NCBI GenBank assembly: GCA_963663895.2
Contig: CAXXRD010000005.1
Span: 160,408-224,407 of the forward strand
DNA from: Dehalococcoidia bacterium
GTDB lineage: Bacteria; Chloroflexota; Dehalococcoidia; Bin125
Reading direction: 5' to 3'
Length of the DNA stretch: 64,000 nt
Under the pieces are notes generated by a model. It was not told where the DNA came from. It ran no database searches and saw only the letters and a list, made by a program, of their open reading frames with translations. This document shows positions 9,647 to 60,810 of the stretch, one piece after another. Made by a program: the position numbers and the translations under genes. How positions within the stretch are numbered: position 1 is the first letter of the stretch; each line of letters starts with the position of its first letter.

Positions 9647-9725
9647 CGTTCCCTGGCTCGTGCTTGGGGTCTCTTCGTACACTATGCGGGAACGAGGATG
9701 ACGGGGAGCGAAAACGGCGGGTCGC

Positions 9726-10691
9726 GTGATGGAGACCGCGTCGAGCCGGCCCACGAGCGCAGCGATCGACTTCGAGCGCTTGTTCGCGGCGCTCATGGAA
9801 CCGGGCGCGCTGCTTGATGACGAGGACTTGGAAGCGCTCATCGCGCTGAGGTCCGATGGACATCGGCAGCTGCGGACAGCACTCGATGGGCTTGATGCCA
9901 GTGCGCGATTCGGGGTGCTGGCTCGGCTGATCGATCTGGCGGAGGTGCAGGTCCGGTTCGATGCCGGCCCGATCTGCCTCGATCGCCTGCAGGACCCGGA
10001 TGCCGGTGTGCGCGCTCTGGCGGCGAACGGGCTGCGGGAGGTCGAAGGGCGTGAGGCATTGGCTCGCTTGCAGCAGATCGCTGCCGACGACCCGGACGCA
10101 CTGGTGCGGGCGGAGGCGATCGGAGCGCTCCGTCCTTGGGTCCTGCGTGCCGAATTCGGGCAGCTGCGGCCCGACGATCGATCGGGATTGATCGCGACCT
10201 TGCGGGAATTGGCTGAGGACGGCGGCACGGAGGCGTCGCTGCGGGGGAGCGCGGTCGAGAGCCTTGGCGTGCTGAGCGAGGAGTGGGTCCGCGAGCTGAT
10301 CCATGAGTCGTTCGCGGCGGAGGATCAAAGGCTGCGCCTTGGGGCGTTGCGCGCGATGGGCTGGAGCGCCGATCCCTACTGGCTGCCGACCGTCCTCGAC
10401 GCGGTCGCAGCGCTGGACGATGAAGAGCGGGCTGCGGCGGCGTTCGCGGCAGGCGAGATCGAGGATGAGGATGCGGTCCCATCGCTCCGCGATCTCCTTG
10501 AGGACGAGAGCCTGGATGTCGTCTTAACGGCCGTTGCGGCGCTGGGGGAGATCGGCGGCCCGCTGGCGTTGGAGGCGTTAGCGGCCGCCTCCACGCATCC
10601 TGAGGCGGAGGTACGGGACGCGGCAAGGGCCGTGAGCGAGAGGACGGCGATCCTCGCTGATCCGCTCGGCATGACGGGGATGCAGTACTGA
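9726..10691 (+). CDS. HEAT-repeat (PBS-lyase type) protein
   Basis: Repeated DPDAGVRALAANGL, DPDALVRAEAIGAL, DESLDVVLTAVAALGEIG and EAEVRDAARAV units. Confidence 0.65.
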   Translation: MMETASSRPTSAAIDFERLFAALMEPGALLDDEDLEALIALRSDGHRQLRTALDGLDASARFGVLARLIDLAEVQVRFDAGPICLDRLQDPDAGVRALAANGLREVEGREALARLQQIAADDPDALVRAEAIGALRPWVLRAEFGQLRPDDRSGLIATLRELAEDGGTEASLRGSAVESLGVLSEEWVRELIHESFAAEDQRLRLGALRAMGWSADPYWLPTVLDAVAALDDEERAAAAFAAGEIEDEDAVPSLRDLLEDESLDVVLTAVAALGEIGGPLALEALAAASTHPEAEVRDAARAVSERTAILADPLGMTGMQY

Positions 10692-13205: not shown

Positions 13206-13393
13206 AGCTCCCTCCCGCCGTCAGGCTACCAGACCCGGTCGTGCACTAGAACTTACATTGGAAATTGGACAGGCTGGAGGGAGGCTTGCGTCCGCTCCAG
13301 TCGACTGGCACCGTTTCCAGCGAAGCAGCGCCGGATAGTGGCGTCAGCAGTACAGGCACAGTCGGACTAATTCCACTGAGCGAGGAGAACAGC

Positions 13394-45770: not shown

Positions 45771-45804
45771 GACGAGACTGTACACGTTGCCGCAGCCCCC
45801 TGGC

Positions 45805-47409
45805 CTAGCACTTCCGAAGGACGATGACCTCGTTCTCGGTGATCGCGTTCTTTACATGCGCAAAGTTCTGTGTTGTCACAGTAATGGGAATCGACTTCTC
45901 CCAAGAAAAGCCAACCTGTTCCGCTATCCGAACGATGTGGGAGCAGGTCGTAATTTGGAACTGTCGCCCGTCACCAAGAACGGTCTTACTGTCACCCAGA
46001 ACCAGGCGGGCTTCCGCCCCAACTCTCATGGCTGCAGAAACATTTTCTAGAGAACGACGCATTCCTGTAAAGTACCGGTATAATAACGCCGCAGTGTTCC
46101 GTTTCCTGAACCCAACCTCAAATTTCTCATTAGTCTCCATAATTTCACGAATATCTCCTCCCACCTCCGAAGGTAGCCTCGCCAAGCCTCCTTCAAGCAT
46201 CTCCTGCTCAATGCTCCTACGCCACCTTTCTGGAATCTCTCTACTTCCAATAATCTCCTTTTCCAACCTAGATCTGTCTTTGTGCGACATCAATCCAAGT
46301 ACGGTAAATGACAAGCGTTCCGTGTCCACATAGGGAAGAGCGGTCGCGTAGGGTGGACTGCTGACGACAGCATCTACCGGATGCTGGGCCAAGACAGGAT
46401 GCAGCCCTGGCGCTAGGGTCCTTGTATCCTCCTCCTGGACATCAACGTTGGGCTCTTTCCACGGGTAATGTCTCGTGAGGTCCTGCCCCGCTCTGATTTT
46501 TTTCATCTCACTTATCGCCTTGTTCACTGTCATAGTGAACAGAGGAGCGTCCCGGATAGGTTCCGGCCTTCGTCGCATCCGCAGATCCCGTGGGTCTTGC
46601 TGAGAGCACGACCGTAGCTGGTCGGACAAGCAGACCTTCAAAAAGTCCTGAATGCCGGGCTCTGCGATGCTGTCTATCGCCTGCAGCGTAATCGCAAGCT
46701 TGTGGCGGACGGACCCGGGAAACCAGCCTCGCAGTTCTGCTTCCGCCCCCGGCACACCACACAGCGCAGCGAGCCGGCTCGCTTCGTAGTCGGAACGCCC
46801 TGGTGGCTCCTTTTCTCCAAGGCCGCCCCATGCAATGCCCTCTGCCTTCGCCAAGCGGATCAGGTCGTCCTCAAATCTCTCGATAGCCACAGCAATTGAG
46901 TGAGCGGGGGTTCGAAGCATTCGCACCTTCGTCCTGGCAATGAGAACGGCAAGCGGGTTGACATCGAAACCAAGGGCGTCGACTCCAAGCAGCCAGGCCT
47001 CGACTAGCGAAGTCCCACTACCAGCGAACGGGTCGACCACGAGATCGCCCGGCGACACCTTCGCATGATTGAGAAGGGCCCGGGCAAGCTGCGGGTAGAA
47101 CTTTCCCTTAAACCGGTGGAGACCATGTGTGAGGTAGTTCGACTCTTTCCGGCCACTGTGACGACCTTGCAGTGCCAGTGTGGCCTGCTCAAGGAGAGAG
47201 ACGTCAGTGGTGACTTCAACGCCGTGTCCGGAAACCCTCGACGAAAAGGCAATGCGACGCAGCACTTCGGGTGAGATTCTCAGTGGCGTAGCAACCGTAC
47301 TCCCGGAAAGAGGCGTGCCGTTAGCGAGAGCAACAAGTTCGTGCTGGGCAAGCGTCTCCTCGTAGGGAAACGGCTGGTAGCCAGGCTTCGCGATCTTGTA
47401 CTCAAACAC
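45805..47409 (-). CDS. DNA methyltransferase (N4-C/N6-A SPPY type), M2 of the island
   Basis: Motif I DPFAGSGTSLVEA, then ~230 aa later motif IV VVSSPPYATALPY. Paralogous architecture to 47413-48801. Confidence 0.8.
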   Translation of the reverse strand: MFEYKIAKPGYQPFPYEETLAQHELVALANGTPLSGSTVATPLRISPEVLRRIAFSSRVSGHGVEVTTDVSLLEQATLALQGRHSGRKESNYLTHGLHRFKGKFYPQLARALLNHAKVSPGDLVVDPFAGSGTSLVEAWLLGVDALGFDVNPLAVLIARTKVRMLRTPAHSIAVAIERFEDDLIRLAKAEGIAWGGLGEKEPPGRSDYEASRLAALCGVPGAEAELRGWFPGSVRHKLAITLQAIDSIAEPGIQDFLKVCLSDQLRSCSQQDPRDLRMRRRPEPIRDAPLFTMTVNKAISEMKKIRAGQDLTRHYPWKEPNVDVQEEDTRTLAPGLHPVLAQHPVDAVVSSPPYATALPYVDTERLSFTVLGLMSHKDRSRLEKEIIGSREIPERWRRSIEQEMLEGGLARLPSEVGGDIREIMETNEKFEVGFRKRNTAALLYRYFTGMRRSLENVSAAMRVGAEARLVLGDSKTVLGDGRQFQITTCSHIVRIAEQVGFSWEKSIPITVTTQNFAHVKNAITENEVIVLRKC

Positions 47410-47412
47410 CAG

Positions 47413-48801
47413 CTATTCCTTTACCAACAGCAAGATGTGCTCCTTGCGGGCCCGGCGTGCGGCGTGGATCATTGAACGTTTCCTTGGGTGAATTACCCGG
47501 CCGACGCATGCGATGGTGCGGAGACCAAGCCGCCGGGAGACTCCAGAGAGCACTACAGCGTTGTTCACGAGCCTGCCACCAAACACGGAGTCCCCAACTA
47601 CGAAGGCAATCGGCCGTCTAGGCTGCAGGCAGGTCATGACTGAGGCGAGACACTCCCTGAGGTCGTCCTGGTAGATGCTGATGGCGTTCGCCTGACCTTG
47701 GTGGTTTAGGTGAGAGCCAATCTCCGCCTCGCGAACCTGCTTTGGGTCGAATCCGAGCCAATAGAGGCGGTGGCGGTGGTACAAGTGGTAGTCGAAAGCG
47801 TTGGCATAGGGTGGGGAGGTGATGACTGCGTCCACGAGCCCGATTTCACTGGCGTCAAGTTGACGAGCATCCCCGACAAGGGCTGTGGCCGCCGAGGATG
47901 AAGCGCCCCTTAGCCACCCGCGGTGCATCCGCACGGTATGCATCAGCTTTTCCCGAAAGCGGCGGAGGACATCGCCAACTTCGACGGTCTTCGCCCTCGC
48001 CGTGTAGCGCGTCTCGGAGTCCTGATTGGAAGCTTGGACGAGGATGGCTGAGAAGCATGCCCGCGCCACTGTAGCTGCGGACGGATGAGCCAGCTCGTCA
48101 ACCCTCGCTAGGATCATGCCCAGCTCATGCATCGCCTGGGGCGTGAACCAACGTTCTCGATTCGGGATCTGTGGAGGGGTAACTGGTGCGATGTCCGGTG
48201 TGACTGTTGCCATGAGGATTGGCTGGCCGGTGATGCGGGAGATATCCGCCTCAACAGCCTTGTCGAGCCCATCCAGGGCACTAAAGCCGGGACTATCCAG
48301 AACAAGGGTCTTGGCTAGCGATGCAAGAACCGCGACAGGGTTTGAATCGATCCCGATGCTGCTTCGGCCGAGAGCCCTTGCTTCGACCAAGGTAGTGCCC
48401 GATCCGCAGAAGGGGTCAAGGACCGTATCTCCTGGACTCGTGAGGACGTTGATCAGCCGGCGCGGGATTTGGGGGGGAAACTTGGCCGGATAGGGGTGGA
48501 GATTGTGGGTCCATTCGTCGGTCCGCTCGTCCTCGAACGCCCAGTCGGAATCATCGAGGATGCGCTTCCACTCGCGCTCAGAGTCATCCCTGGGTTCGTC
48601 AAGGGGAACTTCATCGTGATGCTCTTCAGCAGACTGCTGCGCGAGCCACGCCTCCAGAGCGGCGGGCTCATACCGAACATTCGAGCCTACCCTGACGAAA
48701 GGAATGTCCCCTCGAGTTCGGAGTCGCCAGAGCGTCGTCCGAGACACCCCCAGAATATCTTCGACCTCAGCCTCTGTGAGGAGATGATCTGGGTGAAACA
48801 T
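47413..48801 (-). CDS. DNA methyltransferase (SPPY type) with an N-terminal excisionase/MerR-type HTH, M1 of the island
   Basis: HTH LTEAEVEDILGVSRTTLWRLRTRGDIPFVRVG. Motif I DPFCGSGTTLVEA. Motif IV VITSPPYANAFDY. Confidence 0.8.
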   Translation of the reverse strand: MFHPDHLLTEAEVEDILGVSRTTLWRLRTRGDIPFVRVGSNVRYEPAALEAWLAQQSAEEHHDEVPLDEPRDDSEREWKRILDDSDWAFEDERTDEWTHNLHPYPAKFPPQIPRRLINVLTSPGDTVLDPFCGSGTTLVEARALGRSSIGIDSNPVAVLASLAKTLVLDSPGFSALDGLDKAVEADISRITGQPILMATVTPDIAPVTPPQIPNRERWFTPQAMHELGMILARVDELAHPSAATVARACFSAILVQASNQDSETRYTARAKTVEVGDVLRRFREKLMHTVRMHRGWLRGASSSAATALVGDARQLDASEIGLVDAVITSPPYANAFDYHLYHRHRLYWLGFDPKQVREAEIGSHLNHQGQANAISIYQDDLRECLASVMTCLQPRRPIAFVVGDSVFGGRLVNNAVVLSGVSRRLGLRTIACVGRVIHPRKRSMIHAARRARKEHILLLVKE

Positions 48802-48849
48802 GGGGAAACGATAGTCGCAGTGTGAGGAACCGTCAAGACGAGTCCGTGT

Positions 48850-50142
48850 TCAGACCCACCCCATCCTGCGCGCCCGTGGCTTACCACCGGATGGCAGTGT
48901 CTGGTCGCACCGCGTAATCCACTTCCGGTAGCCAGGGGAACCTTCCGGGTGGACCTCCATCTCGTAGTTCGTCCCCTGCTCCAAGCCTTCGTCGGCATGG
49001 CGAATGAGGAGGAGAGAGTACGGAGGAATGTACTGACGCAGCTCCTGACCAACAGTCATCCGTACGTCGGCGTTGTGGTATTTCATGATCTCAGGCCGAA
49101 TCGTGGTCTTCTCAGCAACCTTGCCTGTGCTGTCGAAGGCAACGAATCGTACAGTCGGGTGAGGATCCATCTTAGGGTAGGGTTTGTTGCCGGCGACTTT
49201 TGGAGTCGTTTGTCCAGACCAAGGCCACCCAAAGAATCCGGGGTTTTGGTCAATGGCCCTGGCGCTGAGAAAAACCTCAGAGTTGGGTCTTGGTACAACC
49301 TCGATCAGCAACACTGAGGCGATGGCACTGAATCCGCTCGCGGCACTCTCATGTGTCCTCAAAAACCCTTTGTTTGTGTGTGCGGGTATCGCAGACGGTG
49401 GCGCAATCCCAGAGGTCCTGAATGGAAGCTGGGCCTCCCGCTCCTCGGTGCCTCCGTGCTCGCCACGCTCAACCCGTGACCGCGCTTGAATCGCCCGTTC
49501 TGGCTCAACGAGCCCTGCGCTGACCAGCTCGTCTATCAGTTCCGTATCCAGTGCAGCCGCGCTCGGCGAAGCGGAAGGCAGCATCGCAGACCACGCGACG
49601 TCGAATTGGGACCACTGCTCAGACTCCGCGGGAAGGGAAAACTCAAAGGCAACCCCCGCTTCGTAGTTAAGCTCCAGTCCACCGAGAGTCAGGTTGTGGG
49701 AGCCGACAAGTGCTTGCGCTTCGGTAGCACCGTCGAACAAGTACAGTTTCGGATGGAAAGTCACGCTCGGATTCGGTTCGTAAAGGACACTCACCGCATC
49801 GAAGCGATCAAGCAGCAGGCGGAGTGCTTCCTCGCTGGTCCCACGATGGTCGATTCCAATAATGGCTTCCGCGCGACCACCCCGGGCACGGAACTCGTCA
49901 ACGGCCTGGATGATTCGGACGACACCAGCCTTGCGAGCAAAGGCAACTGCGACCCGAGCTCGTGTGAACCTCTCGTCGTGGAGGTAACCAGCTACGAACT
50001 CTCGTGCCCGAACCTTGCCGGCCGGCGCCTCATGAGGGGCAAGAAGCTTGAAGTTCACGGCCGTCTGGCATCCAGTGGGGCTGCGATTCTCACGTGCGGC
50101 GCATTTTGACACACTCAGACGGTGGTAGTCCGGTCCCTGCAT
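48850..50142 (-). CDS. PLD/HKD-family nuclease with a probable B3-like DNA-binding C-terminal domain (BfiI/NgoFVII-like restriction endonuclease)
   Basis: Single HKD motif FHPKLYLFDG...LVGSHNLTLGGL in the N-terminal half, followed by a ~170-aa beta-rich C-terminal domain. Sits in an operon with two MTases. Confidence 0.7.
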   Translation of the reverse strand: MQGPDYHRLSVSKCAARENRSPTGCQTAVNFKLLAPHEAPAGKVRAREFVAGYLHDERFTRARVAVAFARKAGVVRIIQAVDEFRARGGRAEAIIGIDHRGTSEEALRLLLDRFDAVSVLYEPNPSVTFHPKLYLFDGATEAQALVGSHNLTLGGLELNYEAGVAFEFSLPAESEQWSQFDVAWSAMLPSASPSAAALDTELIDELVSAGLVEPERAIQARSRVERGEHGGTEEREAQLPFRTSGIAPPSAIPAHTNKGFLRTHESAASGFSAIASVLLIEVVPRPNSEVFLSARAIDQNPGFFGWPWSGQTTPKVAGNKPYPKMDPHPTVRFVAFDSTGKVAEKTTIRPEIMKYHNADVRMTVGQELRQYIPPYSLLLIRHADEGLEQGTNYEMEVHPEGSPGYRKWITRCDQTLPSGGKPRARRMGWV

Positions 50143-50372
50143 GGGTTGCAGCCCCTATGTGGGGCTCGTGTCAGGTCCCCTTCCTACGGAGACCCGAAGT
50201 ACGCTCAGAACGAGAGCTTTACGTAGAATCGGGCGCATCTCTTTTCGCACGAGCGCGTCGTCATGCCGATGTCTCTGCTGTGCTAGGGGGATGACACAGC
50301 CTGTTTCGGGCGGACCGGCTGAACACCAGGATCTAGGTGCCTGGCTACAGAGCCATGGCCAACTCGAACGTG

Positions 50373-50383
50373 CGTAGTACAGT
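50373..50383 (+). repeat. CGTAGTACAGT motif, copy 1
   Basis: Exact 11-mer. With flanks, CGAACGTGCGTAGTACAGT (50365-50383) matches copy 3 at 18/19. Confidence 0.6.
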
Positions 50384-50399
50384 CCCGTCGGGTGTACCA
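50381..50399 (+). repeat. Degenerate direct repeat of the tRNA-Arg 3-prime end (candidate attR)
   Basis: AGTCCCGTCGGGTGTACCA versus tRNA 45752-45770 AGTCCTGCCGGGGGTACCA: 16 of 19 identical, same orientation. Confidence 0.5.
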
Positions 50400-51031: not shown

Positions 51032-51190
51032 GGCGGGAGAGGGTAGCAGGGCGTACGAGGGCGACGCTTACGATCCGCACACACCCGGCAGGGCCAGGAG
51101 GCCAACCTGTCAGAAGACGCTACGCCGACTAGCCAGCAGCCAACGACGGTGGTAGGACAGGAGGCCATGGCAGCCAGCGGGAGAGGGCCC

Positions 51191-52549
51191 ATGCCACGGC
51201 GCATTGCCATTGTTGGTGGCGGCATTTCAGGGCTGGGCGCCGCCTGGGCGCTGTATCACCACCCGGACCGTTTTGATTTTCGGCTGTTCGAGGCGCGGGA
51301 ACAGGTTGGCGGCAATGCGATTACCGCTGATATGCCGCAGGATGACGGCAGCTCGATTCCCTTCGACATCTCTGTCACCGCTTGTATCCCGTCGGTCTAT
51401 CACCACGTTCTGCTGCTGATGGAAAAGTTCGGCATCGAGCTGATCGATACCCGGTTCAGCTACAGCGTGAAGTACGGCGGGCAGGTCTACGCCCACGATT
51501 TCGATTCCGAGATCAGGGAGCAGCTGCAAGCGGAGATCGCGAGGTTCCAGCGAGTCTTGAGATGGTTGCATTGGTTTGGTTGGCTGAGCCGCTCCCAATC
51601 GAAGTTGCTGAACGCCCTCAATCCGTTCAATTACCTCAGCATGGGGACGATCCTGAATCTGGGAGGATTTTCTGGAGACTTCCGCTACAAGATTCTGAAG
51701 CCTATGTTCGTCAATTTCCTGATGGCGACGAACGTATTCGATATGCCTGCGGCGCTCTTCGCGAGGTATCTCGAATTCTTCGATATCGAAACCGCGACGC
51801 CCATGCGGACCTGGGACCAGGGAACGCGACGCATCTACGAAAACTTAGCGGCCAACTTTCGGGACAAGATCTACCTCAACCGGCCCGTCCGAAAGGTGTA
51901 CCGGCGGGCGTCCCGCGTCGTAGTCGAGGACGAGGACGGCGTACGGGAGACGTTCGACCAAGTGGTGTTCGCCTGCAATGCGAACCAGACGCTGATGATC
52001 CTCGACAACCCCACGCTTCTTGAGCGCTATATCCTCTCGTCGATCCGCTATGAGAGTGAACTTCACAACCACGCGGTCGTCCACTCCGACGCCTCAGTCC
52101 TGCCGGACAACGAGGTGAAGCCCCTGACAACGCGGAGCACGCATGTCGAGCAGTACGGCGCGAGACCGGACAACTATGAGATCACATACATCATGCACAA
52201 CCAGCAACCATGGGCGAATCGGTCCGATAAGCCTTGTCTGGTGACCTACAACCCGATCAGCTCCATTGATGAACGAAAGATCGTCAAGAGGTGGTGGTTT
52301 CAGCACATCGTCCATGACGTGCGCCACGTGGTATTGCTCGTCAACTTGTTCCGCTTCATTCAGGGCAAGAGGCGCACGTGGCACTGTGGCGCTCACACGC
52401 TGATCAACAGCCAGGAAACCTGCCTCGTTACCGGGCTCGCCACTGCCAGACAGATCGGCGCCGACTACCCCTTCGACGATCCTGCGGCGAAGCGGTCGTT
52501 CAACTATTACGGGAGCATCATGTACGGCTCGCGATTCCGGAAGGCGTAG
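51191..52549 (+). CDS. NAD/FAD-binding oxidoreductase (COG2907, amine-oxidase/CrtI-like fold)
   Basis: Dinucleotide fold RIAIVGGGISGLGAAWAL...FEAREQVGGN. C-terminal WHCGAHT...ETCLVTG. ATG 51191 is preferred (the ORF is open from 51149). Confidence 0.75.
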   Translation: MPRRIAIVGGGISGLGAAWALYHHPDRFDFRLFEAREQVGGNAITADMPQDDGSSIPFDISVTACIPSVYHHVLLLMEKFGIELIDTRFSYSVKYGGQVYAHDFDSEIREQLQAEIARFQRVLRWLHWFGWLSRSQSKLLNALNPFNYLSMGTILNLGGFSGDFRYKILKPMFVNFLMATNVFDMPAALFARYLEFFDIETATPMRTWDQGTRRIYENLAANFRDKIYLNRPVRKVYRRASRVVVEDEDGVRETFDQVVFACNANQTLMILDNPTLLERYILSSIRYESELHNHAVVHSDASVLPDNEVKPLTTRSTHVEQYGARPDNYEITYIMHNQQPWANRSDKPCLVTYNPISSIDERKIVKRWWFQHIVHDVRHVVLLVNLFRFIQGKRRTWHCGAHTLINSQETCLVTGLATARQIGADYPFDDPAAKRSFNYYGSIMYGSRFRKA

Positions 52550-52627: not shown

Positions 52628-53683
52628 CTATGTCGTCGATGTGGAGTCCCCGTAATCGCTCAGATCGGGATAGAACTGGGCGCAATAAGCTCGAAAGGTC
52701 CGCATCTCCCCATCGGAGCGGCAGAGGCGCGGATGGGAGAGGTACTGTTTGCGGCCCCAGATCACCACGTCCTGCAGCACGTCATGCTTCTGCTGCAGCG
52801 ACATGAACTTGTTCATGAGGGGCGCGCGCAGCCTCCGCGGCAGAAATCCCAGACCGACAATCCGCCGCCTCGGGTTGCGTATCTCCCGCACCTGCGAGAC
52901 CAGCGACAGGTCGATGAGCGTGCCGTCGACCGGCGTCGCCAATACCCACAGACGCAGATCCATGTCGATCGAACGCTCGTGGATCTCCACGAACGAGTAG
53001 CCCAGCCCATAGATGCGGGCTTTGGCGGAGATGTCGAAGTTGAGGGTCATGATTCCGGCGATCCGCCGGGATGACCGGAAGTCGAAGCCGGTCTTGAGCA
53101 AGGGACCGTCCACCGCTACCGGATCGACGCCGCCCACATTGTCGTATCCGTGGACGTAGCGAAGGTGAGCCAGATCCACGGAGTTCTCCGTGGTCTCCTG
53201 GGGATGGCCGGGGAAGCGCAGGGTTTGGATCTTGAAGTCACTCCAGCCGGCCTGGTCCGGGTCCGCAGGCAGGTGCCATTGCGGCGCTCGGCCCTCGATC
53301 CCCCACCAGGCGAAGATCAGGCCGTGGATCACTCGTGTCTCGAAGACTCGCAACCTCGCGGACCTGGGTGGGGCGGCGAAGGGAGTGGCGACGCATTGAC
53401 CGGTAGTATCGAACTCAAAGCCGTGGAAGGGGCAGACGAGCCGGCCATCGCAAATGCGCCCCCCCGCGGCGGGTCCCAGATCGGAGCCCAGGTGCGGGCA
53501 GACGGCCTCGGCGACGCAGACGCGCCCGTTCTCTTCACTCCAGACGACAACGTTCTCGTCCATCCAGGTCTTTTGGATGAGCTTCGCCTTCAGGATGTCC
53601 CGGCGGCTTGCGACGAAATACCATCCCTCGGGAAACAGGGAAGGGAATGGGGCGATCGCGGGTTCCCCACGCTGGGTTGGCAT
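52628..53683 (-). CDS. Rieske [2Fe-2S] non-heme-iron oxygenase (KshA/Neverland/SdmA-like class)
   Basis: Rieske CPHLGSDL...CPFHGFEF. Mononuclear iron motif ENSVDLAHLRYVH. GAGGAG RBS before ATG 53683. Confidence 0.85.
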   Translation of the reverse strand: MPTQRGEPAIAPFPSLFPEGWYFVASRRDILKAKLIQKTWMDENVVVWSEENGRVCVAEAVCPHLGSDLGPAAGGRICDGRLVCPFHGFEFDTTGQCVATPFAAPPRSARLRVFETRVIHGLIFAWWGIEGRAPQWHLPADPDQAGWSDFKIQTLRFPGHPQETTENSVDLAHLRYVHGYDNVGGVDPVAVDGPLLKTGFDFRSSRRIAGIMTLNFDISAKARIYGLGYSFVEIHERSIDMDLRLWVLATPVDGTLIDLSLVSQVREIRNPRRRIVGLGFLPRRLRAPLMNKFMSLQQKHDVLQDVVIWGRKQYLSHPRLCRSDGEMRTFRAYCAQFYPDLSDYGDSTSTT

Positions 53684-53858
53684 CCTTCGATACTCCTCAC
53701 TCGGAATCTCGGGTTGCCGGCCTCCATTGCCAAGATACCCGTCTAGGATACGAGAACCGCTTGCCCATCACACCCGGTCCACCCACTTGCCTGTGCGTCC
53801 CGCGTCCCCTGCGGGACGGTCATCCGTCTTTTTCCCTGCCCGGTAAGTAAGGTAGACT

Positions 53859-53907
53859 GTCCATTATGGGGAAAGTCTAAGCCGCTTAGGCTTTCCCCAT
53901 AATGGAC
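53859..53907. promoter_or_regulatory. Perfect 49-nt palindrome/hairpin covering the first ATG of the GPP34-P450 gene
   Basis: GTCCATTATGGGGAAAG (53859-53875) pairs perfectly with CTTTCCCCATAATGGAC (53891-53907). The inner CTAAG/CTTAG stem has a 3-nt CCG loop. This gives 22 Watson-Crick pairs plus one T-G. Confidence 0.85.
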
Positions 53908-55947
53908 GGGGCAAAACTCATGGCTATCGCGACGAAAGCTGGGGTCACCCAGTCGCTCAGTTTGCCCGACGAGCTCGTCCTGATGCTCCTCAACGAAGAG
54001 AGCGGCTACTTTCGCCAAATACCCGGCTGGAATTTGAACTGCGCCGTCGTCGGCGCCGTACTCGCGGAACTGTCGCTGGACTCTCGCATTGACACGGATA
54101 TGGAGTCCCTGATCCTTCTGGACCAGACGGAGACGGGCGACCCGGCCCTGGACCCCATCCTGAAGGAGATTGCAAGCGAACCAGTGCAACGGAACGCCCA
54201 GTATTGGGTTGAGCGGCTCGCTCCCCATGCGGAGTCGATCATTGATTTGACCATGGATCGCTTGGTTGACCTGAAGATCCTGCAACGCCACGAAGGCGAT
54301 TTTTGGTCGCTGGCCAGTACTGCTTGGCAGACGGATCTACTCAGCAACTCCCATGAAGGCACCGCGGCTGAGTTCGTCAGAACGCGCATCAACAGAGTGA
54401 TCTTCAGCAACGAGATTCCGAGCCCGAGAGATATCATCCTTGTTTGCCTCATCGATACGTGCGATCTCTTTCGCTTCATGTTCCAACTCGAGGACGAGTC
54501 GGAGGAACGGATCCAGCTCATCTGCAAGATGGATTTGATCGGCCGGTCCATCGCCGAGGCGGTCTCCGTCAACATCGCCAGTCCGGCGCTTCGGCGCCCC
54601 GCCTTGACTAAGTCAATTCCGACTGTCCCGCTGCGGCGGCTCCTGCTCAATCCCCATGCTCGCGGCGGCAATATTCCCGCACTCTTTGCGGATCTCGCCG
54701 AGAAGCACGGCCCGGTGTTCGAGATCCGCCCGCCGTTTAAGAAACCCATGATCTTTCTGGCCGGGCCCGAGACAAATCACTGGGCACATCGGCACGGGCG
54801 GATGTACCTGAGAGCCAGGGACTATCTCCATGACTTCGAGAAGATCTATGGCGCGTCTGGACTACTGCCGGCGCTGGACGGCGCCGATCATTTTCGCTTG
54901 CGCAAGTCCCTGCAGCAGGGTTACTCGCGCGCGAGATTGGAAGGGCAGGTGGATCAGCTCTACCGTCTTGCCCGGACGCACATGGCGGATTGGACGGTTG
55001 GAGACATTGTCCCCATGGTCACCCTGTGCCGGCGTTTGATGAACGCGCAAATCTCGCCGCTCTTAACCAGCGTGGATTCGCAGGATCTCTTCGACGATCT
55101 AGTCAAATTCAAGGACCGGGCACTCAAAACGACGCTCTTGGGGGTCATGCCCAAGTTCATGCTGCATACCCCGAGCATGAAACGCCGGGCGAAGCAGATC
55201 GACGTACTGATGGAGCGGGTCCAGAGTAGCCATACGCCCGCCCAGCGGACTGGCCGTCCTCGTGATCTTGCGGATGAGTTTCTCAGCCTGCACGCGAGCG
55301 ATCCACAGTTCCTACCGGAGTCGAATCTGCGCTTCAAATTTACGGCGCCGGTGATCGCCAGCATGTACAGCGGCGATACGCTGAGCTTCGTGGTCCACGC
55401 CATGGTGTCGCAGCCTGCGTTCTACGAGAGAATCCGGAGTGAAGCCGATGCCTTGTTTGACGGCGGCGATCCGGACGGCAAGGATTTCACCCCATCCGCG
55501 ATCGATGTCACTCGCCGTTTCATCATGGAGTGCCTGCGCCTGTATCCGATCATCCCGATGTCGATTCGAAACGTGATGAATACGTGCGTGGTTGAGGACT
55601 ACGAACTGCCGGAGGGGGCGCAGGTTTACGTAGCCCAAACCGCCACGCATTACATGAGCGACGCTTTCCCGGAGCCCCTCTCTTTCGATATCGATCGCTA
55701 CCTGCCTCCGCGCGGTGAACATATTGGTCCCAACTACGCCCCGTTCGGACTGGGCACGCACACATGTCTCGGCGGCCGGTGGGTGGAACTGCAAGTGGCG
55801 ATCAACCTGCTGATGCTCGCGCATTACTTCACGTTCGAGCTGTCGCCCCCGAACTCCAAGCTCCGGGTCAACATGTTTCCGTCGATGTCTATCAAGAAGA
55901 AGGTGAAGTGCGTCATCGCTGAGCAGAGACGCGAGTTGAACGTCTAA
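53902..55947 (+). CDS. GPP34 (GOLPH3-like) domain fused to cytochrome P450
   Basis: - N-terminal ~200 aa: GPP34 pattern (LSLPDELVLMLLNEESGYF, CAVVGAVLAELSLDSRI, TGDPALDPIL).
- C-terminal ~450 aa: P450 (ExxR ECLRLYP, FDIDRYLPPR, heme loop FGLGTHTCLGGRWVELQ).
- Start is ATG 53902 or 53920. Confidence 0.8.
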   Translation: MDGAKLMAIATKAGVTQSLSLPDELVLMLLNEESGYFRQIPGWNLNCAVVGAVLAELSLDSRIDTDMESLILLDQTETGDPALDPILKEIASEPVQRNAQYWVERLAPHAESIIDLTMDRLVDLKILQRHEGDFWSLASTAWQTDLLSNSHEGTAAEFVRTRINRVIFSNEIPSPRDIILVCLIDTCDLFRFMFQLEDESEERIQLICKMDLIGRSIAEAVSVNIASPALRRPALTKSIPTVPLRRLLLNPHARGGNIPALFADLAEKHGPVFEIRPPFKKPMIFLAGPETNHWAHRHGRMYLRARDYLHDFEKIYGASGLLPALDGADHFRLRKSLQQGYSRARLEGQVDQLYRLARTHMADWTVGDIVPMVTLCRRLMNAQISPLLTSVDSQDLFDDLVKFKDRALKTTLLGVMPKFMLHTPSMKRRAKQIDVLMERVQSSHTPAQRTGRPRDLADEFLSLHASDPQFLPESNLRFKFTAPVIASMYSGDTLSFVVHAMVSQPAFYERIRSEADALFDGGDPDGKDFTPSAIDVTRRFIMECLRLYPIIPMSIRNVMNTCVVEDYELPEGAQVYVAQTATHYMSDAFPEPLSFDIDRYLPPRGEHIGPNYAPFGLGTHTCLGGRWVELQVAINLLMLAHYFTFELSPPNSKLRVNMFPSMSIKKKVKCVIAEQRRELNV

Positions 55948-57032
55948 CGCACCAATGGATCACAACCCAGAGATTGGGAAGGAGATGGCCTGAGGGGTTT
56001 GCGTGCCAGGAAACAGTACAATGGCGTGAAGATTCCGGCCCTGCCGCCGGCGACATAGGCATTTGCGGTCCGATCCATCAACCTGACAACGTCCGCAGAA
56101 CCCTTGGGGAACGCCCCAAGGACCTCAGCCAGCCTGGATGCCCCGATGAGCGCTTTACGGCCCAGCGGAGTTCTCCGCAAGCGCGTTGCCCGTGTTCTGT
56201 GTGTGGTTTCCATGGGTTGATACCACGGCGTGGTCAGACCGTTTCTCCTCGGCGAGACGGCACGGTCCAATCCCTCAATGACCTCGAATCCCGCCGTTAC
56301 GAGCGCCCGATTCACTCCATCCATCGTCGCGATATCCTTGAGCGCGATGCCGTGCATCAGGTCCTGCTTGATGGCCCGATGCCGATTATCGTCGGGATGA
56401 AACTTGTCCGTCATGCACATTTCCTGACCCCAGAAGAGGGCTCCGGGCTTCAGCACCCGGTAGATCTCGGCGAACGCGCTTACCTTGTCAGGCGCATGGC
56501 ACGTCGATTCGATCGCATAACCCCGGTCGAACGTGTCGTCCGCAATGGCGCCCATGTCCATGAAGCTGCACTCAAGGTAGTCGACCATGTGGTCAAGTCC
56601 CGCCTCAGCGTTCAAGGATTTCGCCTTGTCAAGCTGGAGTTTATTGTTGTTGACCCCGACGACCCTAACACCGGCCTCACGGACGACCCGGCGCATCGGG
56701 CCGCCGATCCCGCAACCGACATCGACCACCGTCATGCCTGGCGTAACCTCCAGCTTGGCGATCATCAGTCGCTGATGCCGGATCTTGGACTCCTCCAAGC
56801 TCTCCCCTGGCGATAGTGGCGCGAAGTGCAGGGATTCGCCCCAACCAAAAACCATGAACTCGCCGCAAAGGTCGTAGTATTCCTTGACGGTTTCGGTGTG
56901 GTCGTAGCCCAGTGCGCCAGCCTCCTCTGTGGACATTCTGTCGGTCCATCCATCAAAGCGTTGCACGCGACGGGCGACACTCGACCCTTGATACGCGACC
57001 TTCAAGCCTTTTCCTAGCTTGCGGAGTTGCAT
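55944..57032 (-). CDS. Sterol 24-C-methyltransferase (ERG6/SMT) family SAM-dependent methyltransferase
   Basis: All SMT hallmark blocks are present: YYDLCGEFMVFGWGESLHFAP, VVDVGCGIGGP, VGVNNN, YAIESTCHAPD and YRVLKPG...MCMTDKF. ATG 57032 is preceded by AAAGGGGA (an in-frame TTG lies at 57047). Confidence 0.8.
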   Translation of the reverse strand: MQLRKLGKGLKVAYQGSSVARRVQRFDGWTDRMSTEEAGALGYDHTETVKEYYDLCGEFMVFGWGESLHFAPLSPGESLEESKIRHQRLMIAKLEVTPGMTVVDVGCGIGGPMRRVVREAGVRVVGVNNNKLQLDKAKSLNAEAGLDHMVDYLECSFMDMGAIADDTFDRGYAIESTCHAPDKVSAFAEIYRVLKPGALFWGQEMCMTDKFHPDDNRHRAIKQDLMHGIALKDIATMDGVNRALVTAGFEVIEGLDRAVSPRRNGLTTPWYQPMETTHRTRATRLRRTPLGRKALIGASRLAEVLGAFPKGSADVVRLMDRTANAYVAGGRAGIFTPLYCFLARKPLRPSPSQSLGCDPLVR

Positions 57033-57165
57033 GAGATCCCCTTTCAAAACAGCTAAGGCGAGCGGATTGTTCGCCGGAGACCCGACTGAGCGGCATCCGT
57101 GCCGTGGCCGAGGCCGGCTAGACCATTGAGGTCGTCGGCCGGTAGCGGTGTTCCCCTACGATCGC

Positions 57166-59676
57166 CTACGACGAGGCCTGTTCCTGCTCGTGGCGTTGAT
57201 GGACTTGCTCGATCACCACGTCAAGCTCCTCCGCCATACGCTCCGCCATCGAGCGGAGCCGCGCGTTCTGGTACGCGCCCCAGACCGTCATCGCGGGCGG
57301 GACGACCAGGATGGCGACGATCAGCGAATAGGCGATCGTGATCGCCGCCGTGATGCCGAACTGCTGGAACGCCAGCAGCGGCGAGGCCACCAGTACTCCT
57401 AACCCGAGCGCCGTCGTGAGCCCGGAGCCCAACAGCGCCGAGCCCGTGGTCGAAAGCGTCCGGATCGCCGCCTTCTCCGGGTTGCGCAGGCGCGCGAACT
57501 CCTCCCGGTAGCGATGAATCACATGGATCGTGTAGTCCACCCCGATCCCGATCGAGAGCGCCGTAATGATCGAGGTGACGAGGGTGTAGGGAATACCCAG
57601 CAGCGCCATCGTGCCCAGCACCCAGATGAGGACGAATACGATCGGGCCCACCGCGATGATGGCCAGCACGGGTTGGCGCAGCGTCAGCCAGAAGAAGATG
57701 GCGAGGATGCCGAGGGCCAGCGCAATGGTCGCGCTGATCGACTCTGTCTGTCGGCTCGTGATCTCGTCCGTGACCGTAACCGCGGTGATACTCGACGAAG
57801 TCGCCGTGATCGCATGGTCGTCGCCCAACCAGAGCGCGTCGATCTCCTCCTGGATCCGCTCCGTTTCCTCGGGATCGTCCGTATAGGCCGGGAACTGGAG
57901 CAGCATTGCGTCAATGCCCTCTGGGTCGTTGATCAAAACATGCGCGACGGCGGGATCCCTCGCCTCCAGCTTGTCGAGGAGCTCCTGCATCAGCGCTGAA
58001 TCGAGCTCTACTCCCACCGAGGCTTCCCGGAAGAGCGCGGCGAGCTCCGGGTCGTATTTGTCGCCGGGCTCCCCGCTGTCGTTGGTCCAGTCACGTACGA
58101 GCAACTCGTACGATGCCAGAATCGGTCCCGCTGCCGCCCGGGGGCGGCGCCGTTCGTCCTCAAAGGCGGTCGTGAGATCCTGCAGGTTCAGAAGCGTGCG
58201 GGTCTCGGTGGCCTCGGCCTTCACGAGGACGCTGGCCATCTCCGTTGAGCCGCCGACGGCTGCGTCGAGGGTCTCCATGTCTTCCACCACGCTCCCGTCA
58301 CTGGGCAGGATGTCGCGGATGCTGAATTCCGATTTGAGCCCCGTGGCCGCGAACCCGAGCCCGATCGTCGCCGCGACCACGACGACGAAGTAAGGTGCTG
58401 GCCTGCGTGCGGCCCCCGCTCCCAGCAACTCCGCCCCCCGTTTGATTCCGGGCAGGGCGTTCGCGATCGGGCGGGGCGGTTTCAGCGTGCCCCGTGACTC
58501 GCGCCGCCGGTCGATGATCGTCCGCGCGGCCGGGAGCAGCGTCAGCATCACGATCAGGCTCATCCCCACACCCAGCCCCGCGACGATGCCGAAGTCGCCG
58601 ATCACGCCGATAGGGGAGAACAGATTCGCCAACAGACTCACGATCGTCGTGACAGCGGCGAGCGTGAGCGGGGCGGCGACGTTTCGCAGTCCCCTCCGGA
58701 CCGCTCCCCGCACCGGCTCGCCGGCAGCGCGCTGCTCGCGGTAGTGCGAGACGGCCTGAATCGCATAGTCCACGGTGAGGCTGATCATGATGATCGGCAC
58801 TACCACTGTGAGCGAACTGGGCGGGCCGATCAGACCCAGCGCATCCGGCCCAAGCCAGCCCTCCGCCCCGATGATCCAGATCACCGCAATCAGTAGCCCC
58901 CCCAGGGTGAGCAGCAGATCGGAGAGCGATCGCATGAAGACCAAGATCAGCGCTGCGATCAGCAGCAGCGCCACCCCAATCAGCTGCTGCATCCCCTGCT
59001 CCGTGGCCTCCTTGTACTCATCTTCAACCACCACGGGCGACACGCTGCTCACGCGCAGCAGACCCTCGTCCCCGGCCGCCAGATCGCTGATCTTCCGTTC
59101 GGCGTCCTGAATTCTCTCGTCGTCCGTGTCACGCAGGCGGATGGTGGCGATGGCGACCGGCGTGCCGTCCGTGTCGGTTCCCGTCATCCCGGCGAGCGCC
59201 CCATCGATCTCCGGGGCGCTGCGGGCGGAGTCGATCTCGGCCTGCGTGACCGACTCGAAGCCGTCCACTCGGAGAAGGTCCTTGATCAGCGACGTCGGTG
59301 TGGCAATGGGATCGGCAGGCGCCAGTAGCTCCCTTACGCTTGGGTCGCTAACGATCGCATCGACCAGGGTGTCCATCTGAGAGAGTCCGGCGGGCGTGAG
59401 CGCCTCCCCGCGGAAGACGAGCGTGACAACACGGACCTCGCCGGAGTCCCCAAAGCGCGCATCGATCTCCTCAATCGCCTCGGCGACGGCGTTCCCTGGG
59501 GGAAGGAACGCCAAGGATGCGCCCTCCACCAGTGGTGCGCGCCGCATCGTGCCCGCAGCCAGCAGAACGGTAATGATGAGGAGAACAAGGATCGTGATGT
59601 ACGGGCGGGCCGTGACCAGCCGGCTCAACCTGTCGAGTACCTGATTCATGGCGCGCATTCTAACCGAGGAGGGCAC
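57166..59676 (-). CDS. MMPL/RND-superfamily lipid transporter (HpnN-like, two 6-TM bundles)
   Basis: 836 aa with duplicated TM bundles and large periplasmic loops. The typical MMPL N-terminus LDRLSRLVTARPYITILVLLIITVLL is present. Start uncertain (59676, 59658 or 59649). Confidence 0.8.
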   Translation of the reverse strand: MPSSVRMRAMNQVLDRLSRLVTARPYITILVLLIITVLLAAGTMRRAPLVEGASLAFLPPGNAVAEAIEEIDARFGDSGEVRVVTLVFRGEALTPAGLSQMDTLVDAIVSDPSVRELLAPADPIATPTSLIKDLLRVDGFESVTQAEIDSARSAPEIDGALAGMTGTDTDGTPVAIATIRLRDTDDERIQDAERKISDLAAGDEGLLRVSSVSPVVVEDEYKEATEQGMQQLIGVALLLIAALILVFMRSLSDLLLTLGGLLIAVIWIIGAEGWLGPDALGLIGPPSSLTVVVPIIMISLTVDYAIQAVSHYREQRAAGEPVRGAVRRGLRNVAAPLTLAAVTTIVSLLANLFSPIGVIGDFGIVAGLGVGMSLIVMLTLLPAARTIIDRRRESRGTLKPPRPIANALPGIKRGAELLGAGAARRPAPYFVVVVAATIGLGFAATGLKSEFSIRDILPSDGSVVEDMETLDAAVGGSTEMASVLVKAEATETRTLLNLQDLTTAFEDERRRPRAAAGPILASYELLVRDWTNDSGEPGDKYDPELAALFREASVGVELDSALMQELLDKLEARDPAVAHVLINDPEGIDAMLLQFPAYTDDPEETERIQEEIDALWLGDDHAITATSSSITAVTVTDEITSRQTESISATIALALGILAIFFWLTLRQPVLAIIAVGPIVFVLIWVLGTMALLGIPYTLVTSIITALSIGIGVDYTIHVIHRYREEFARLRNPEKAAIRTLSTTGSALLGSGLTTALGLGVLVASPLLAFQQFGITAAITIAYSLIVAILVVPPAMTVWGAYQNARLRSMAERMAEELDVVIEQVHQRHEQEQASS

Positions 59677-59894
59677 CGGAGGCGGTACCGGCCGGCGCGA
59701 GCGGCTTCGCCGGTAGGTCGAACTGCTACTGTGACTTTCCCCGTCCGCGCCGGTGTCCAGCGGCCGGGCATGTCCCTCGCCGCTGCCGCCTGGAGGTTGT
59801 CGAGGCGCCCCGCATCTCCAGCAGCCCAGCCGTCTGGGAGCTGGCCCTCCGAGGGGCGTGACCTAGTGGCTCACGGCCAGCCCGACCGGTCGGT

Positions 59895-59905
59895 CGTAGT
59901 ACAGT
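59895..59905 (+). repeat. CGTAGTACAGT motif, copy 2
   Basis: TCGTAGTACAGTTTC (59894-59908) is identical to copy 3 over 15 nt. Lies in the divergent MMPL/GT2 intergenic region. Confidence 0.6.
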
Positions 59906-60084
59906 TTCGGTCGGTGTACCGACGCTCGCCGATGAGAATAGCGAAGGGCATGGGAGGGGTTAAGTCGCGCAGCCGGACGGGATGCGGCGGAGCCTCGTCT
60001 TCCGCTCTACCCTTCCTGCCTCAACGCTCTCGAAGCGGGGGCGAGGTTCCATCGATCGCTGACCCGCTTTACCCTCGGCCGCCT

Positions 60085-60810
60085 GTGAAGCTCACGATCA
60101 TCGTCCCCGCTTTCAACGAAGAGAGCTACCTCGCCGCGACTCTGGATTCGATCCAGGCCACCGCGGCGCAGTTACGCGCTCGCTCCGATGTCGACATCGA
60201 GACGATCGTCGTCGACAACAACAGCGCCGATGAGACCGCCGCCATTGCCCGGAGCAAGGGCGCGACGGTCGTGCACGAGCTGGTGCAGGGCATTGCGCGG
60301 GCTCGCAACGCCGGGGCGCGCCATGCCCAAGGGGACGTGCTCGTCTTCGTCGACGCGGACGTGATCGTGCCCTGCGCGCTCCTCGCCGCGATCCACGCGA
60401 CCATGAGCGACCCGGCTTGCATCGGCGGTGGCGTGGACGTGGATTACCGGCCCCGACGCCTCTCCATCAGGCTCTACCTGTGCGCTTGGCGGCTCCTCGG
60501 CCGTCTCCTGGGGATGGGCCAAGGTGCCACGCAGTTCTGCCGGAAGTGCGTCTTTGAACGGGTCGGCGGCTACGACGAACGGGTCTGGATCGGCGAGGAT
60601 GTCGACTTCTATTGGAGCCTCAAGCGTCTCGCAAGGGAAACAGGCCACTCGGTCCGGTTCATACGGAATCCGCGCGTGCGGCCATCCTGCCGCCGCTTCG
60701 ACCAGTGGCCGCTGTGGAAGGTTCTGATCTGGACCAACCCGCTCTTCATCGTGGTGTTCCGCCGCCGCAAGGCCTTCTGGCAGGGCTGGTACTCGCATGC
60801 GGTACGGTAG
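60085..60810 (+). CDS. Family 2 glycosyltransferase
   Basis: LTIIVPAFNEESYL...IVVDNNSADET...VFVDADV (DxD)...GEDVDF. GTG 60085 chosen; the upstream in-frame extension is not protein-like. Confidence 0.8.
   Translation: MKLTIIVPAFNEESYLAATLDSIQATAAQLRARSDVDIETIVVDNNSADETAAIARSKGATVVHELVQGIARARNAGARHAQGDVLVFVDADVIVPCALLAAIHATMSDPACIGGGVDVDYRPRRLSIRLYLCAWRLLGRLLGMGQGATQFCRKCVFERVGGYDERVWIGEDVDFYWSLKRLARETGHSVRFIRNPRVRPSCRRFDQWPLWKVLIWTNPLFIVVFRRRKAFWQGWYSHAVR

Follow-up and report, generated by a model that had tools for sequence, protein, structure and literature searches.

What does a bacterium do with a relative of the yeast sterol methyltransferase (SMT) ERG6, and on which substrate might such an enzyme act? 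The question is raised by a gene in a 64,000 nt stretch of the genome of a Dehalococcoidia bacterium (Chloroflexota; assembly GCA_963663895.2, contig CAXXRD010000005.1, positions 160,408–224,407), hereafter called the window, which had been read from its sequence, without database searches, as encoding a sterol C-24 methyltransferase with the full set of signature blocks. The reading that we favour, and consider probable on the sequence evidence set out below, is that the gene encodes an SMT-family methyltransferase of sponge-symbiotic Chloroflexota (Dehalococcoidia/SAR202-type) which tailors pre-formed sterols, and that it does so within a mobile cassette of linked genes.

By domain content and alignment, the window protein belongs to the sterol methyltransferase (ERG6/SMT) family. 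The motifs quoted in the original prediction were all present in the open reading frame (ORF; MVFGWGESLHFAP, VDVGCGIGGP, GVNNN, IESTCHAPD, YRVLKPGA and QEMCMTDKF), and the Sterol_MT_C domain (PF08498) expected at the C-terminus was found at aa 288–351 with a score above threshold (57.8 bits versus a cutoff of 21.7, E 1.2e-15), alongside Methyltransf_11 (E 1.2e-16), Methyltransf_25 and Methyltransf_31. The protein aligned by BLASTP with Saccharomyces cerevisiae ERG6 (NP_013706.1, sequence confirmed by exact look-up) over 347 aa, collinear from the N- to the C-terminus and with 36% identity (E 1e-72); since the Pfam domains and this end-to-end alignment agree, the similarity is real and far beyond chance, and the resemblance predicted for regions I and III survived a proper alignment. 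When 1.84 billion cluster representatives were searched exhaustively with HMMER, 253 SMT-family clusters were obtained at E ≤1e-30; the relatives were SMT-family proteins and not non-sterol methyltransferases, and some of them bear the names fungal ERG6, plant SMT1-like or 'sterol 24-C-methyltransferase family'. The ORF has an alternative in-frame TTG start at 57047 (55944–57047, 367 aa), but the ATG at 57032 is the likely start, because the 345 aa homologues have their first residue at the corresponding position and a Shine-Dalgarno-like element is located just upstream.

To assess the conservation of individual residues, the window protein and 83 relatives (84 clade sequences) were aligned with ERG6 by MAFFT; ERG6 numbering is used throughout. 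Region II (DxGxGxxGP), which marks the class I S-adenosylmethionine (SAM)-dependent methyltransferase fold, reads VDVGCGIGGP in the window protein, and its residues D125, G127, G129, G132 and P133 are invariant in 84/84 sequences. Regions III and IV are represented by YAIESTCHAP and LKPGA, with Y192 and E195 kept in all 84 sequences and G217 in 83, while the window protein retains the core (G84, W85, G86, H90 and F91) of region I, whose aromatic sterol-binding motif is Y-E-(Y/F)-G-W-G-x-S-F-H-F, and G333, G352, F357 and P359 of the Sterol_MT_C region. The claim of a full set of signature blocks held for regions II and III, which are canonical, but not for regions I and IV, which are degenerate (Y81M, F89L, Y223Q and W225M).

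Twenty-five residues are shared by all SMTs with demonstrated function (Brown & Welander, bioRxiv 10.64898/2025.12.19.695621), a set that is an empirical predictor of function and not a definition of the family. The window SMT keeps 22 of the 25, including the five invariant residues of region II, W85, H90, F91, Y192, E195, G217 and W286, and differs at the remaining three (T78G, F89L and L341M). Position 78 is S, G or N across the clade, F89L is fixed (84/84), and position 341 is L in 43 and M in 41 sequences. Further replacements relative to ERG6 are Y81 to M, G218 to A, T219 to L and D249 to I (each 83/84), and Y223 to Q, W225 to M and G250 to A (each 84/84). Neither the SAM site nor the catalytic core of regions I and III is disrupted, and aliphatic or polar residues have taken the place of several that line the pocket for the sterol side chain (M81, L89, Q223, M225 and I249). 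According to Brown & Welander (bioRxiv 10.64898/2025.12.19.695621), no SMT structure has been reported; in their docking models the sterol comes within 5 Å of positions 81 and 249. Propylation was found to require Gly249, so that this clade, which has Ile there, is not predicted to propylate sterols in the published way. The original assignment as a sterol C-24 methyltransferase therefore stands at the level of the family (Pfam, ERG6), but by sequence the protein is not a canonical C-24 SMT. With T78, F89 and L341 deviating and four aromatic or acidic pocket residues replaced, C-24 methylation of a standard substrate may be presumed but not taken for granted.

The altered residues delimit a group of their own within the SMT tree. 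Only three other clusters share the 'SLHF' form of region I and the 'LFW-x-QE' form of region IV (P0154, P0156 and P0157, with 55%, 50% and 41% identity, respectively), and in a tree of 96 full-length cluster representatives these three and the window clade formed one monophyletic group on a long stem. Elsewhere in the tree Y81 and F89 are present in almost every cluster, and Y223 and W225 in most, to a lesser degree. The window clade is named only 'class I SAM-dependent methyltransferase' by NCBI; a canonical clade of sponge symbionts, P0159 (Acidimicrobiia / Ca. Poriferisocius), carries the name 'sterol 24-C-methyltransferase family protein'. Judged from these sequence features, the window SMT is a member of a distinct, strongly conserved and uncharacterised SMT subfamily.

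When one genome of each GTDB species was scanned, relatives of the window SMT were detected in 513 species, and the best 80 loci, in which the SMT is 74–88% identical to that of the window, were analysed over ±10 kb each. In more than half of these loci the SMT gene, a GPP34–cytochrome P450 fusion gene, a gene for an MMPL transporter of the resistance-nodulation-division (RND) superfamily with a sterol-sensing domain (SSD), and a KshA-like Rieske oxygenase gene form a conserved cassette. GPP34–P450 was detected in 51/80 loci (49 intact fusions, 43 of the genes abutting the 3′ end of the SMT gene), the transporter also in 51 (in 44 directly upstream of and co-directional with the SMT gene), the Rieske gene in 52 and a flavoprotein gene, a looser member of the neighbourhood, in 32, and the tight arrangement of the window was seen in 43–44 of the 80. 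The sister cluster P0154 likewise has a convergent gene after the SMT gene, which encodes a product of 656 aa, similar in size to the fusion and lacking an annotation.

Some loci carry further genes of sterol metabolism. Searches with Pfam and tblastn detected ERG4/ERG24-type reductases within 10 kb of the SMT gene in two Dadabacteria loci (L031 and L034) and five Chloroflexota loci (L058, L060, L067, L068 and L079), with Pfam confirmation for L034 and for a tandem pair in L067 (17477–19880). The reductase of L034 and its homologues, within 10 kb of the SMT gene in five Chloroflexota species, are 71–73% identical across the phyla. On the complete Dadabacteria chromosome OX638332.1 (L034, 4655–12636; 1.59 Mb) an ERG4/ERG24 reductase, an MMPL/SSD transporter, a KshA-like Rieske oxygenase, the SMT and a 3-beta-hydroxysteroid dehydrogenase-like/DUF2867 protein are encoded in a row. 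Four Chloroflexota species have a second SMT gene 3–7 kb away (L015, L029 at 14426–15442, L037 and L076), whose product is of the canonical type, with a Sterol_MT_C score of 85.7 bits and a region I of the form YEYGWG.SFHF.

Paralogues were also seen in other settings. Another Dadabacteria metagenome-assembled genome (MAG) has a second SMT paralogue, of cluster P0161, on the same contig and 13 accession numbers away. One Dehalococcoidia genome (contig CBDEGP010000002.1, loci L005 and L008 at 1.25 and 1.36 Mb) encodes two divergent SMT copies about 110 kb apart, each 82% identical to the window protein, with no cassette gene detected nearby by tblastn and with tRNA synthetase genes beside the copy in L005 (a Pfam result for that locus only). 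On the complete chromosome OZ253558.1 (L002/L007, 7486–13107) the transporter gene is split into ORFs of 364 and 100 aa and GPP34 and P450 are separate short ORFs next to an intact SMT gene, which may be due either to a retained SMT having outlasted the rest of a decaying cassette or to indel errors in long reads.

The carriers among the best 80 are mostly MAGs of Dehalococcoidia/Chloroflexota, including a 'SAR202 cluster' bin, but Acidimicrobiia, Dadabacteria/Thermodesulfobacteriota and one alphaproteobacterium are represented as well, and several of the genomes are complete chromosomes. Their association with sponges is indicated by MAG names and by the published restriction of GPP34–P450 fusions to sponge symbionts (PMC11706023): bin names with COS, RHO, APA and SB06xx match sets of demosponge symbiont MAGs (PMC8163846), and the naming style of carrier MAGs with universally unique identifiers suggests an origin in projects on sponge genomes, for example PMC13224822, in which a sponge genome was reported together with its metagenome bins.

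The SMT gene has moved horizontally between these phyla. In a neighbour-joining tree the copies from outside the Chloroflexota were nested among the Chloroflexota copies, within a tight radiation, and synonymous divergence (dS) of the window gene from the copies in other phyla was only 0.42 for Acidimicrobiales, 0.65 for Alphaproteobacteria, 0.74 for Dadabacteria and 0.77 for Acidimicrobiia; because these values are unsaturated, vertical descent cannot account for the distribution across phyla. The Dadabacteria SMT gene has a GC content of 0.58–0.59 between flanks of 0.47–0.49, and the copy in L034 is about 10 GC points above its surroundings. The gene is under purifying selection, with a ratio of nonsynonymous to synonymous divergence (dN/dS) of 0.13–0.28 by the Nei-Gojobori method.

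Exchange is also apparent at shorter range. The window is 94–98% identical at the nucleotide level to metagenome contig L001 and 88–95% identical to the Coscinoderma-type COS3_bin_3 (L004), but the comparison with L001 contains a patch of raised divergence of about 4 kb (L001 9960–14000), which spans half of the Rieske gene, GPP34–P450 and the SMT gene. Since synonymous sites are also substantially diverged (SMT dS 0.22, dN/dS 0.27), the patch looks like an allelic replacement by recombination rather than the result of relaxed constraint, and this suggests that the SMT–P450 pair was exchanged as a unit. L001, the closest relative, has a 773 bp insertion (9187–9959) with a fragment of an IS1595-family DDE transposase, located exactly between the MMPL and SMT genes (window junction 57075/57076).

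The arrangement in the window itself is listed in Table 1. The MMPL transporter gene lies 133 nt upstream of the SMT gene in the same direction, and the two are therefore probably co-transcribed; apart from its Pfam domains, the transporter gave NCBIfam matches below threshold to HAE3, HpnN (118 versus 752) and BstA (45 versus 1400). The GPP34–P450 gene is convergent with the SMT gene, their stop codons overlapping (CTAA, 55944–55947), and its P450 domain contains the haem-ligand motif FGLGTHTCLG. That domain was not accepted as CYP51, as its partial and weak match to CYP51 structures (~1e-19) is equalled by unrelated P450s. The best PDB matches of the Rieske protein were to the 3-ketosteroid 9-alpha-hydroxylase KshA (7e-24), and its assignment as SdmA was rejected (34 bits versus a cutoff of 600), as was an ORF on the opposite strand (53150–53746, plus strand), which is an antisense shadow of the Rieske gene. 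The SMT, P450 and flavoprotein genes have GC contents of 0.591, 0.587 and 0.579, all below those of the housekeeping genes (0.63–0.69).

Table 1. Position of the SMT gene, its neighbours and other features of the window.
Feature	Position	Strand	Evidence or remarks
GmrSD-type (type IV) restriction endonuclease	13265–15511		C-terminal RAMA domain
Low-GC insertion, 4.6 kb	45774–50395		GC 0.56–0.60
N6/N4 DNA methyltransferase	45805–47409
N6/N4 DNA methyltransferase	47413–48801		HTH_17
PLD-family nuclease	48850–50142
LkcE-like flavin amine-oxidase-family protein	51149–52549	+	Pfam Amino_oxidase 1.5e-17; best PDB match LkcE 2e-30
KshA-like Rieske non-haem-iron oxygenase, 351 aa	52628–53683	-	Pfam Rieske 1.9e-18, KshA_C 2.9e-23
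Patch of raised divergence versus L001	53200–57350 (approximate)		Identity in 300-column windows: 86–96% inside, 97–100% outside
GPP34 (GOLPH3-like) and cytochrome P450 fusion, 681 aa	53902–55947	+	Pfam GPP34 1.4e-30 (aa 21–221), p450 4.6e-35 (aa 254–660)
Divergent SMT-family methyltransferase, 362 aa from ATG	55944–57032	-	ORF, motifs, Pfam, ERG6 alignment
Shine-Dalgarno-like element AAAGGGGA	57037–57044	-	4 nt upstream of SMT ATG; read from sequence
RND-superfamily MMPL transporter with sterol-sensing/Patched-type domains	57166–59676	-	Pfam MMPL 1e-48, Sterol-sensing 5e-14, Patched 4e-12
Glycosyltransferase family 2	59731–60810		Best model TIGR04283, below threshold (110 versus 182)
ORF, 400 aa	60938–62140	-	No Pfam or NCBIfam match
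ORF, 518 aa	62401–63957	-	No Pfam or NCBIfam match

The remainder of the window is made up of ordinary bacterial housekeeping genes (nuoL/M/N, MetRS, HisRS, RelA, ComM-like, PrmC) and restriction systems, and is rich in defence genes. The low-GC insertion beside the cassette, with its DNA methyltransferase and nuclease genes, is missing from the syntenic relatives L001 and L004 and has clean junctions, and so is a strain-specific restriction-modification island. On the other side, the glycosyltransferase gene (the name of its best model is 'arsenosugar biosynthesis glycosyltransferase') is divergent from the transporter gene, and is probably outside the cassette as it is kept only in the closest relatives. 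Beyond it, the 400 aa ORF is kept in L001 (96%) and L004 (82%), and the 518 aa ORF was found only in L004 (84%).

As for the origin of the substrate, the classical bacterial clusters of sterol biosynthesis combine a fused squalene monooxygenase–oxidosqualene cyclase (SMO-OSC), CYP51, ERG24 and SdmA/SdmB (Brown et al. 2023, PMC10070321). No cyclase was found among the large ORFs scanned across the window, and a regular-expression scan, which is a weak, motif-based test, detected no DCTAE/QW or epoxidase motifs in the window or the 83 loci. Likewise, the window and the examined loci (±10 kb) showed no CYP51 motif, again by a weak motif scan, and no SdmA or SdmB annotation. On these tests the SMT gene is linked neither to a cyclase or epoxidase nor to an SdmA/SdmB pair with CYP51.

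Taken with the linked genes, this suggests that sterols are modified rather than built. The SSD-type RND transporter would move a sterol across or within the envelope, and so supply or export it; the SMT would add a methyl group from SAM to a double bond in the sterol side chain, as expected from the mechanism of the family; and oxidation or desaturation of the sterol may fall to the GPP34–P450 fusion and the KshA-like Rieske oxygenase. The side-chain chemistry could be completed, in some genomes, by ERG4/ERG24-type reductases and the second, canonical SMT. Since neither a cyclase nor an epoxidase was found linked to the cassette, the enzyme most likely acts on a pre-formed sterol, which the sponge host or genes elsewhere on the bacterial genome would provide. 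The changed pocket (M81, L89, Q223, M225 and I249) makes it probable that substrate preference or product is not the same as in canonical C-24 SMTs.

Several observations weigh against sterol tailoring by this cassette. The cassette is not obligatory, since 22/80 loci carry the SMT gene without any cassette gene and in unrelated contexts, and the roles given to the P450, the Rieske protein and the flavoprotein follow from distant similarity. The cyclase check in the loci relied on a weak motif expression, and a similar expression overlooked real ERG4/ERG24 genes. With regard to the enzyme itself, T78 and F89 of the 'functional' set are lost throughout the clade and L341 in about half of it, and departures from that set were frequent in those tested SMTs that failed to act on desmosterol or 24-methylenecholesterol (Brown & Welander, bioRxiv 10.64898/2025.12.19.695621), so the window SMT may not accept standard sterols. 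Finally, de novo sterol synthesis elsewhere in the carrier genomes is possible, because ERG24-CYP51-LSS clusters have been reported in sponge Dehalococcoidia (Kelly 2022, PMC9531527).

This last point leads to a different reading, in which the window SMT is an ordinary C-24 SMT serving the bacterium's own de novo synthesis, with cyclase, epoxidase, CYP51 and C-4 demethylases encoded elsewhere and with the pocket changes being neutral drift. The ERG24-CYP51-LSS clusters have been reported in MAGs of Acidimicrobiia as well as Dehalococcoidia from sponges, with sterol genes often dispersed on the chromosome (PMC9531527); moreover, 8 out of 10 tested SMTs from sponge symbionts methylated desmosterol (Brown 2023, PMC10070321), and the residues of the catalytic core are kept here. 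We nevertheless regard it as unlikely, as the substitutions do not resemble drift: they are fixed in the clade under the purifying selection described above, the residues they replace are near-universal in other clusters, and two of the positions (81 and 249) are within 5 Å of the sterol in the published docking models. The presence of a canonical SMT beside the divergent one in some genomes argues for non-redundant functions, the linked genes encode a transporter and tailoring enzymes but, by the motif scan, never a cyclase, and the cassette is found on a Dadabacteria chromosome of 1.59 Mb.

The substrate might instead not be a sterol at all, but another isoprenoid olefin of the squalene or hopanoid type, or a small amine, with Sterol_MT_C merely forming a structural lid. 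The triterpene methyltransferases of Botryococcus are SMT-like, the transporter upstream also resembles the hopanoid transporter HpnN, and the loss of aromatic pocket residues could mean another class of substrate. The top NCBIfam match of the window SMT is a sarcosine/dimethylglycine N-methyltransferase, and some loci with the SMT gene alone (L026 and L002) adjoin genes of the sarcosine oxidase or GCV_T type. This adjacency is weak evidence, because genes for sarcosine/dimethylglycine oxidases abound in SAR202 genomes. The match itself scored 72.2 bits against an equivalog cutoff of 550, and, like the other non-sterol methyltransferases that topped the PDB and NCBIfam lists with scores far below their own cutoffs, covered only the generic Rossmann domain, whereas ERG6 aligns end to end. 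Together with the linkage to sterol-specific families (ERG4/ERG24, canonical SMT and KshA-like oxygenase), this makes a non-sterol substrate improbable. The gene might also be taken for a contaminant from the sponge, or for a pseudo-enzyme that is inactive or decaying, in view of the typical occurrence of SMTs in eukaryotes, the three changed residues of the 'functional' set and the fragmented transporter and fusion genes of L002/L007. Genomic context and selection data leave practically no room for this: the gene lies in a bacterial window of 64 kb with nuo, relA, aminoacyl-tRNA synthetase and restriction-modification genes on its sides, it has a Shine-Dalgarno-like element and a stop codon overlapping that of its neighbour, it is present on complete bacterial chromosomes, and its ORF is intact in 84/84 sequences, with low dN/dS and an invariant SAM site.

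Tailoring of pre-formed sterols, the reading we favour, also bears on the GPP34–P450 fusion. Fusions of this type, known as GPP34_L, are reported to comprise 656 proteins that are monophyletic and exclusive to sponge-symbiotic bacteria, rare fusions of GPP34 with a Rieske domain have also been described, and GPP34_L was proposed to bind phosphatidylinositol 4-phosphate (PI4P) and to interfere with or evade phagosome maturation (PMC11706023, Microbiome 2025). The window neighbour has exactly this architecture and its relatives occur in the same phyla of sponge symbionts, and in 43 of the 80 species the fusion gene directly adjoins an SMT gene. The main text of PMC11706023 does not mention sterols, methyltransferases or MMPL, and a full-text literature search combining GPP34, P450, bacteria and sterol gave no result. 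On account of the linkage with the SMT cassette, we suggest that the fusion belongs to a sterol-tailoring unit. In a weak alignment of the GPP34 domain (window 53902–54600) with human GOLPH3 (E 0.4), the equivalent of W81 was kept in 50/51 of the SMT-linked fusions, and the residue aligned with R90, which we take to be the arginine needed for PI4P binding, was V, I, A, T or M in 51/51 and never basic. As far as this alignment can be trusted, such a pattern does not fit simple PI4P binding.

These findings allow a more far-reaching proposal, which we put forward as speculation and rate as distinctly doubtful. The cassette would let symbionts of at least four phyla take up and re-tailor the sterols of their host, the remodelled pocket would serve a kind of side-chain methylation not performed by canonical SMTs, and the GPP34–P450 fusion would be an enzyme of the sterol pathway instead of, or besides, a PI4P-binding anti-phagocytosis effector. 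Candidate reactions are the methylation of an already alkylated side chain, or methylation at C-26/C-27, for which we know of no sterol-methylating enzyme. If this were true, symbionts would contribute to 'sponge-specific' sterols and to sterane fossils.

That bacterial SMTs function in vitro (PMC10070321) and are enriched in MAGs of sponge symbionts (PMC9531527), and that sterol genes are transferred horizontally among these symbionts, is already known. As far as the literature consulted shows, the divergent subfamily, its pocket signature and the fixed link of its genes to GPP34–P450, the SSD transporter and the KshA-like oxygenase are new. The oldest chemical evidence put forward for animals consists of side-chain-alkylated steranes (24-isopropylcholestane and 26-methylstigmastane), and this argument depends on knowing which organisms can alkylate sterol side chains. 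The few dozen bacterial SMTs tested in publications were functional only with a canonical pocket. With relatives in 513 species, horizontal transfer among symbionts, purifying selection and a different pocket, the subfamily described here may represent a large further part of the potential sterol-modifying capacity of sponge holobionts, and the linkage to the SMT gene gives the GPP34–P450 fusion a testable alternative function in sterol tailoring.

Compared with ERG6 and with plant SMT1 and SMT2, the window protein shares the architecture of a class I SAM methyltransferase with Sterol_MT_C, collinear over its length at the identity given above, as well as region II (DxGxGxxGP), region III (YAIExTCHAP), the GWG..HF core, G217 and W286. 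It differs in its bacterial host, in being linked to a transporter and oxygenases and not to the ergosterol or phytosterol pathway, and in the clade-wide replacement of T78, Y81, F89, G218, T219, Y223, W225, D249 and G250. The bacterial SMTs tested previously (PMC10070321; bioRxiv 10.64898/2025.12.19.695621) are homologues, many of them from demosponge metagenomes, and paralogue pairs occur in some genomes; like the present clade, they have a bearing on 24-alkyl sterane biomarkers. They are encoded in classical biosynthetic clusters (SMO-OSC, CYP51, ERG24 and SdmA/SdmB), none of which lies within reach of this cassette, and the functional ones all keep T78, F89 and L341, where the present clade has S/G/N, L, and L or M, respectively; position 249 is Ile here, and not the Gly required for propylation. 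Finally, the transporter in the window is, like HpnN for hopanoids and BstA for bacterial sterols, of the RND/HAE3 type with an SSD, and gave partial matches to both, but with scores far below the equivalog cutoffs for either it would, by sequence, constitute a separate subfamily.

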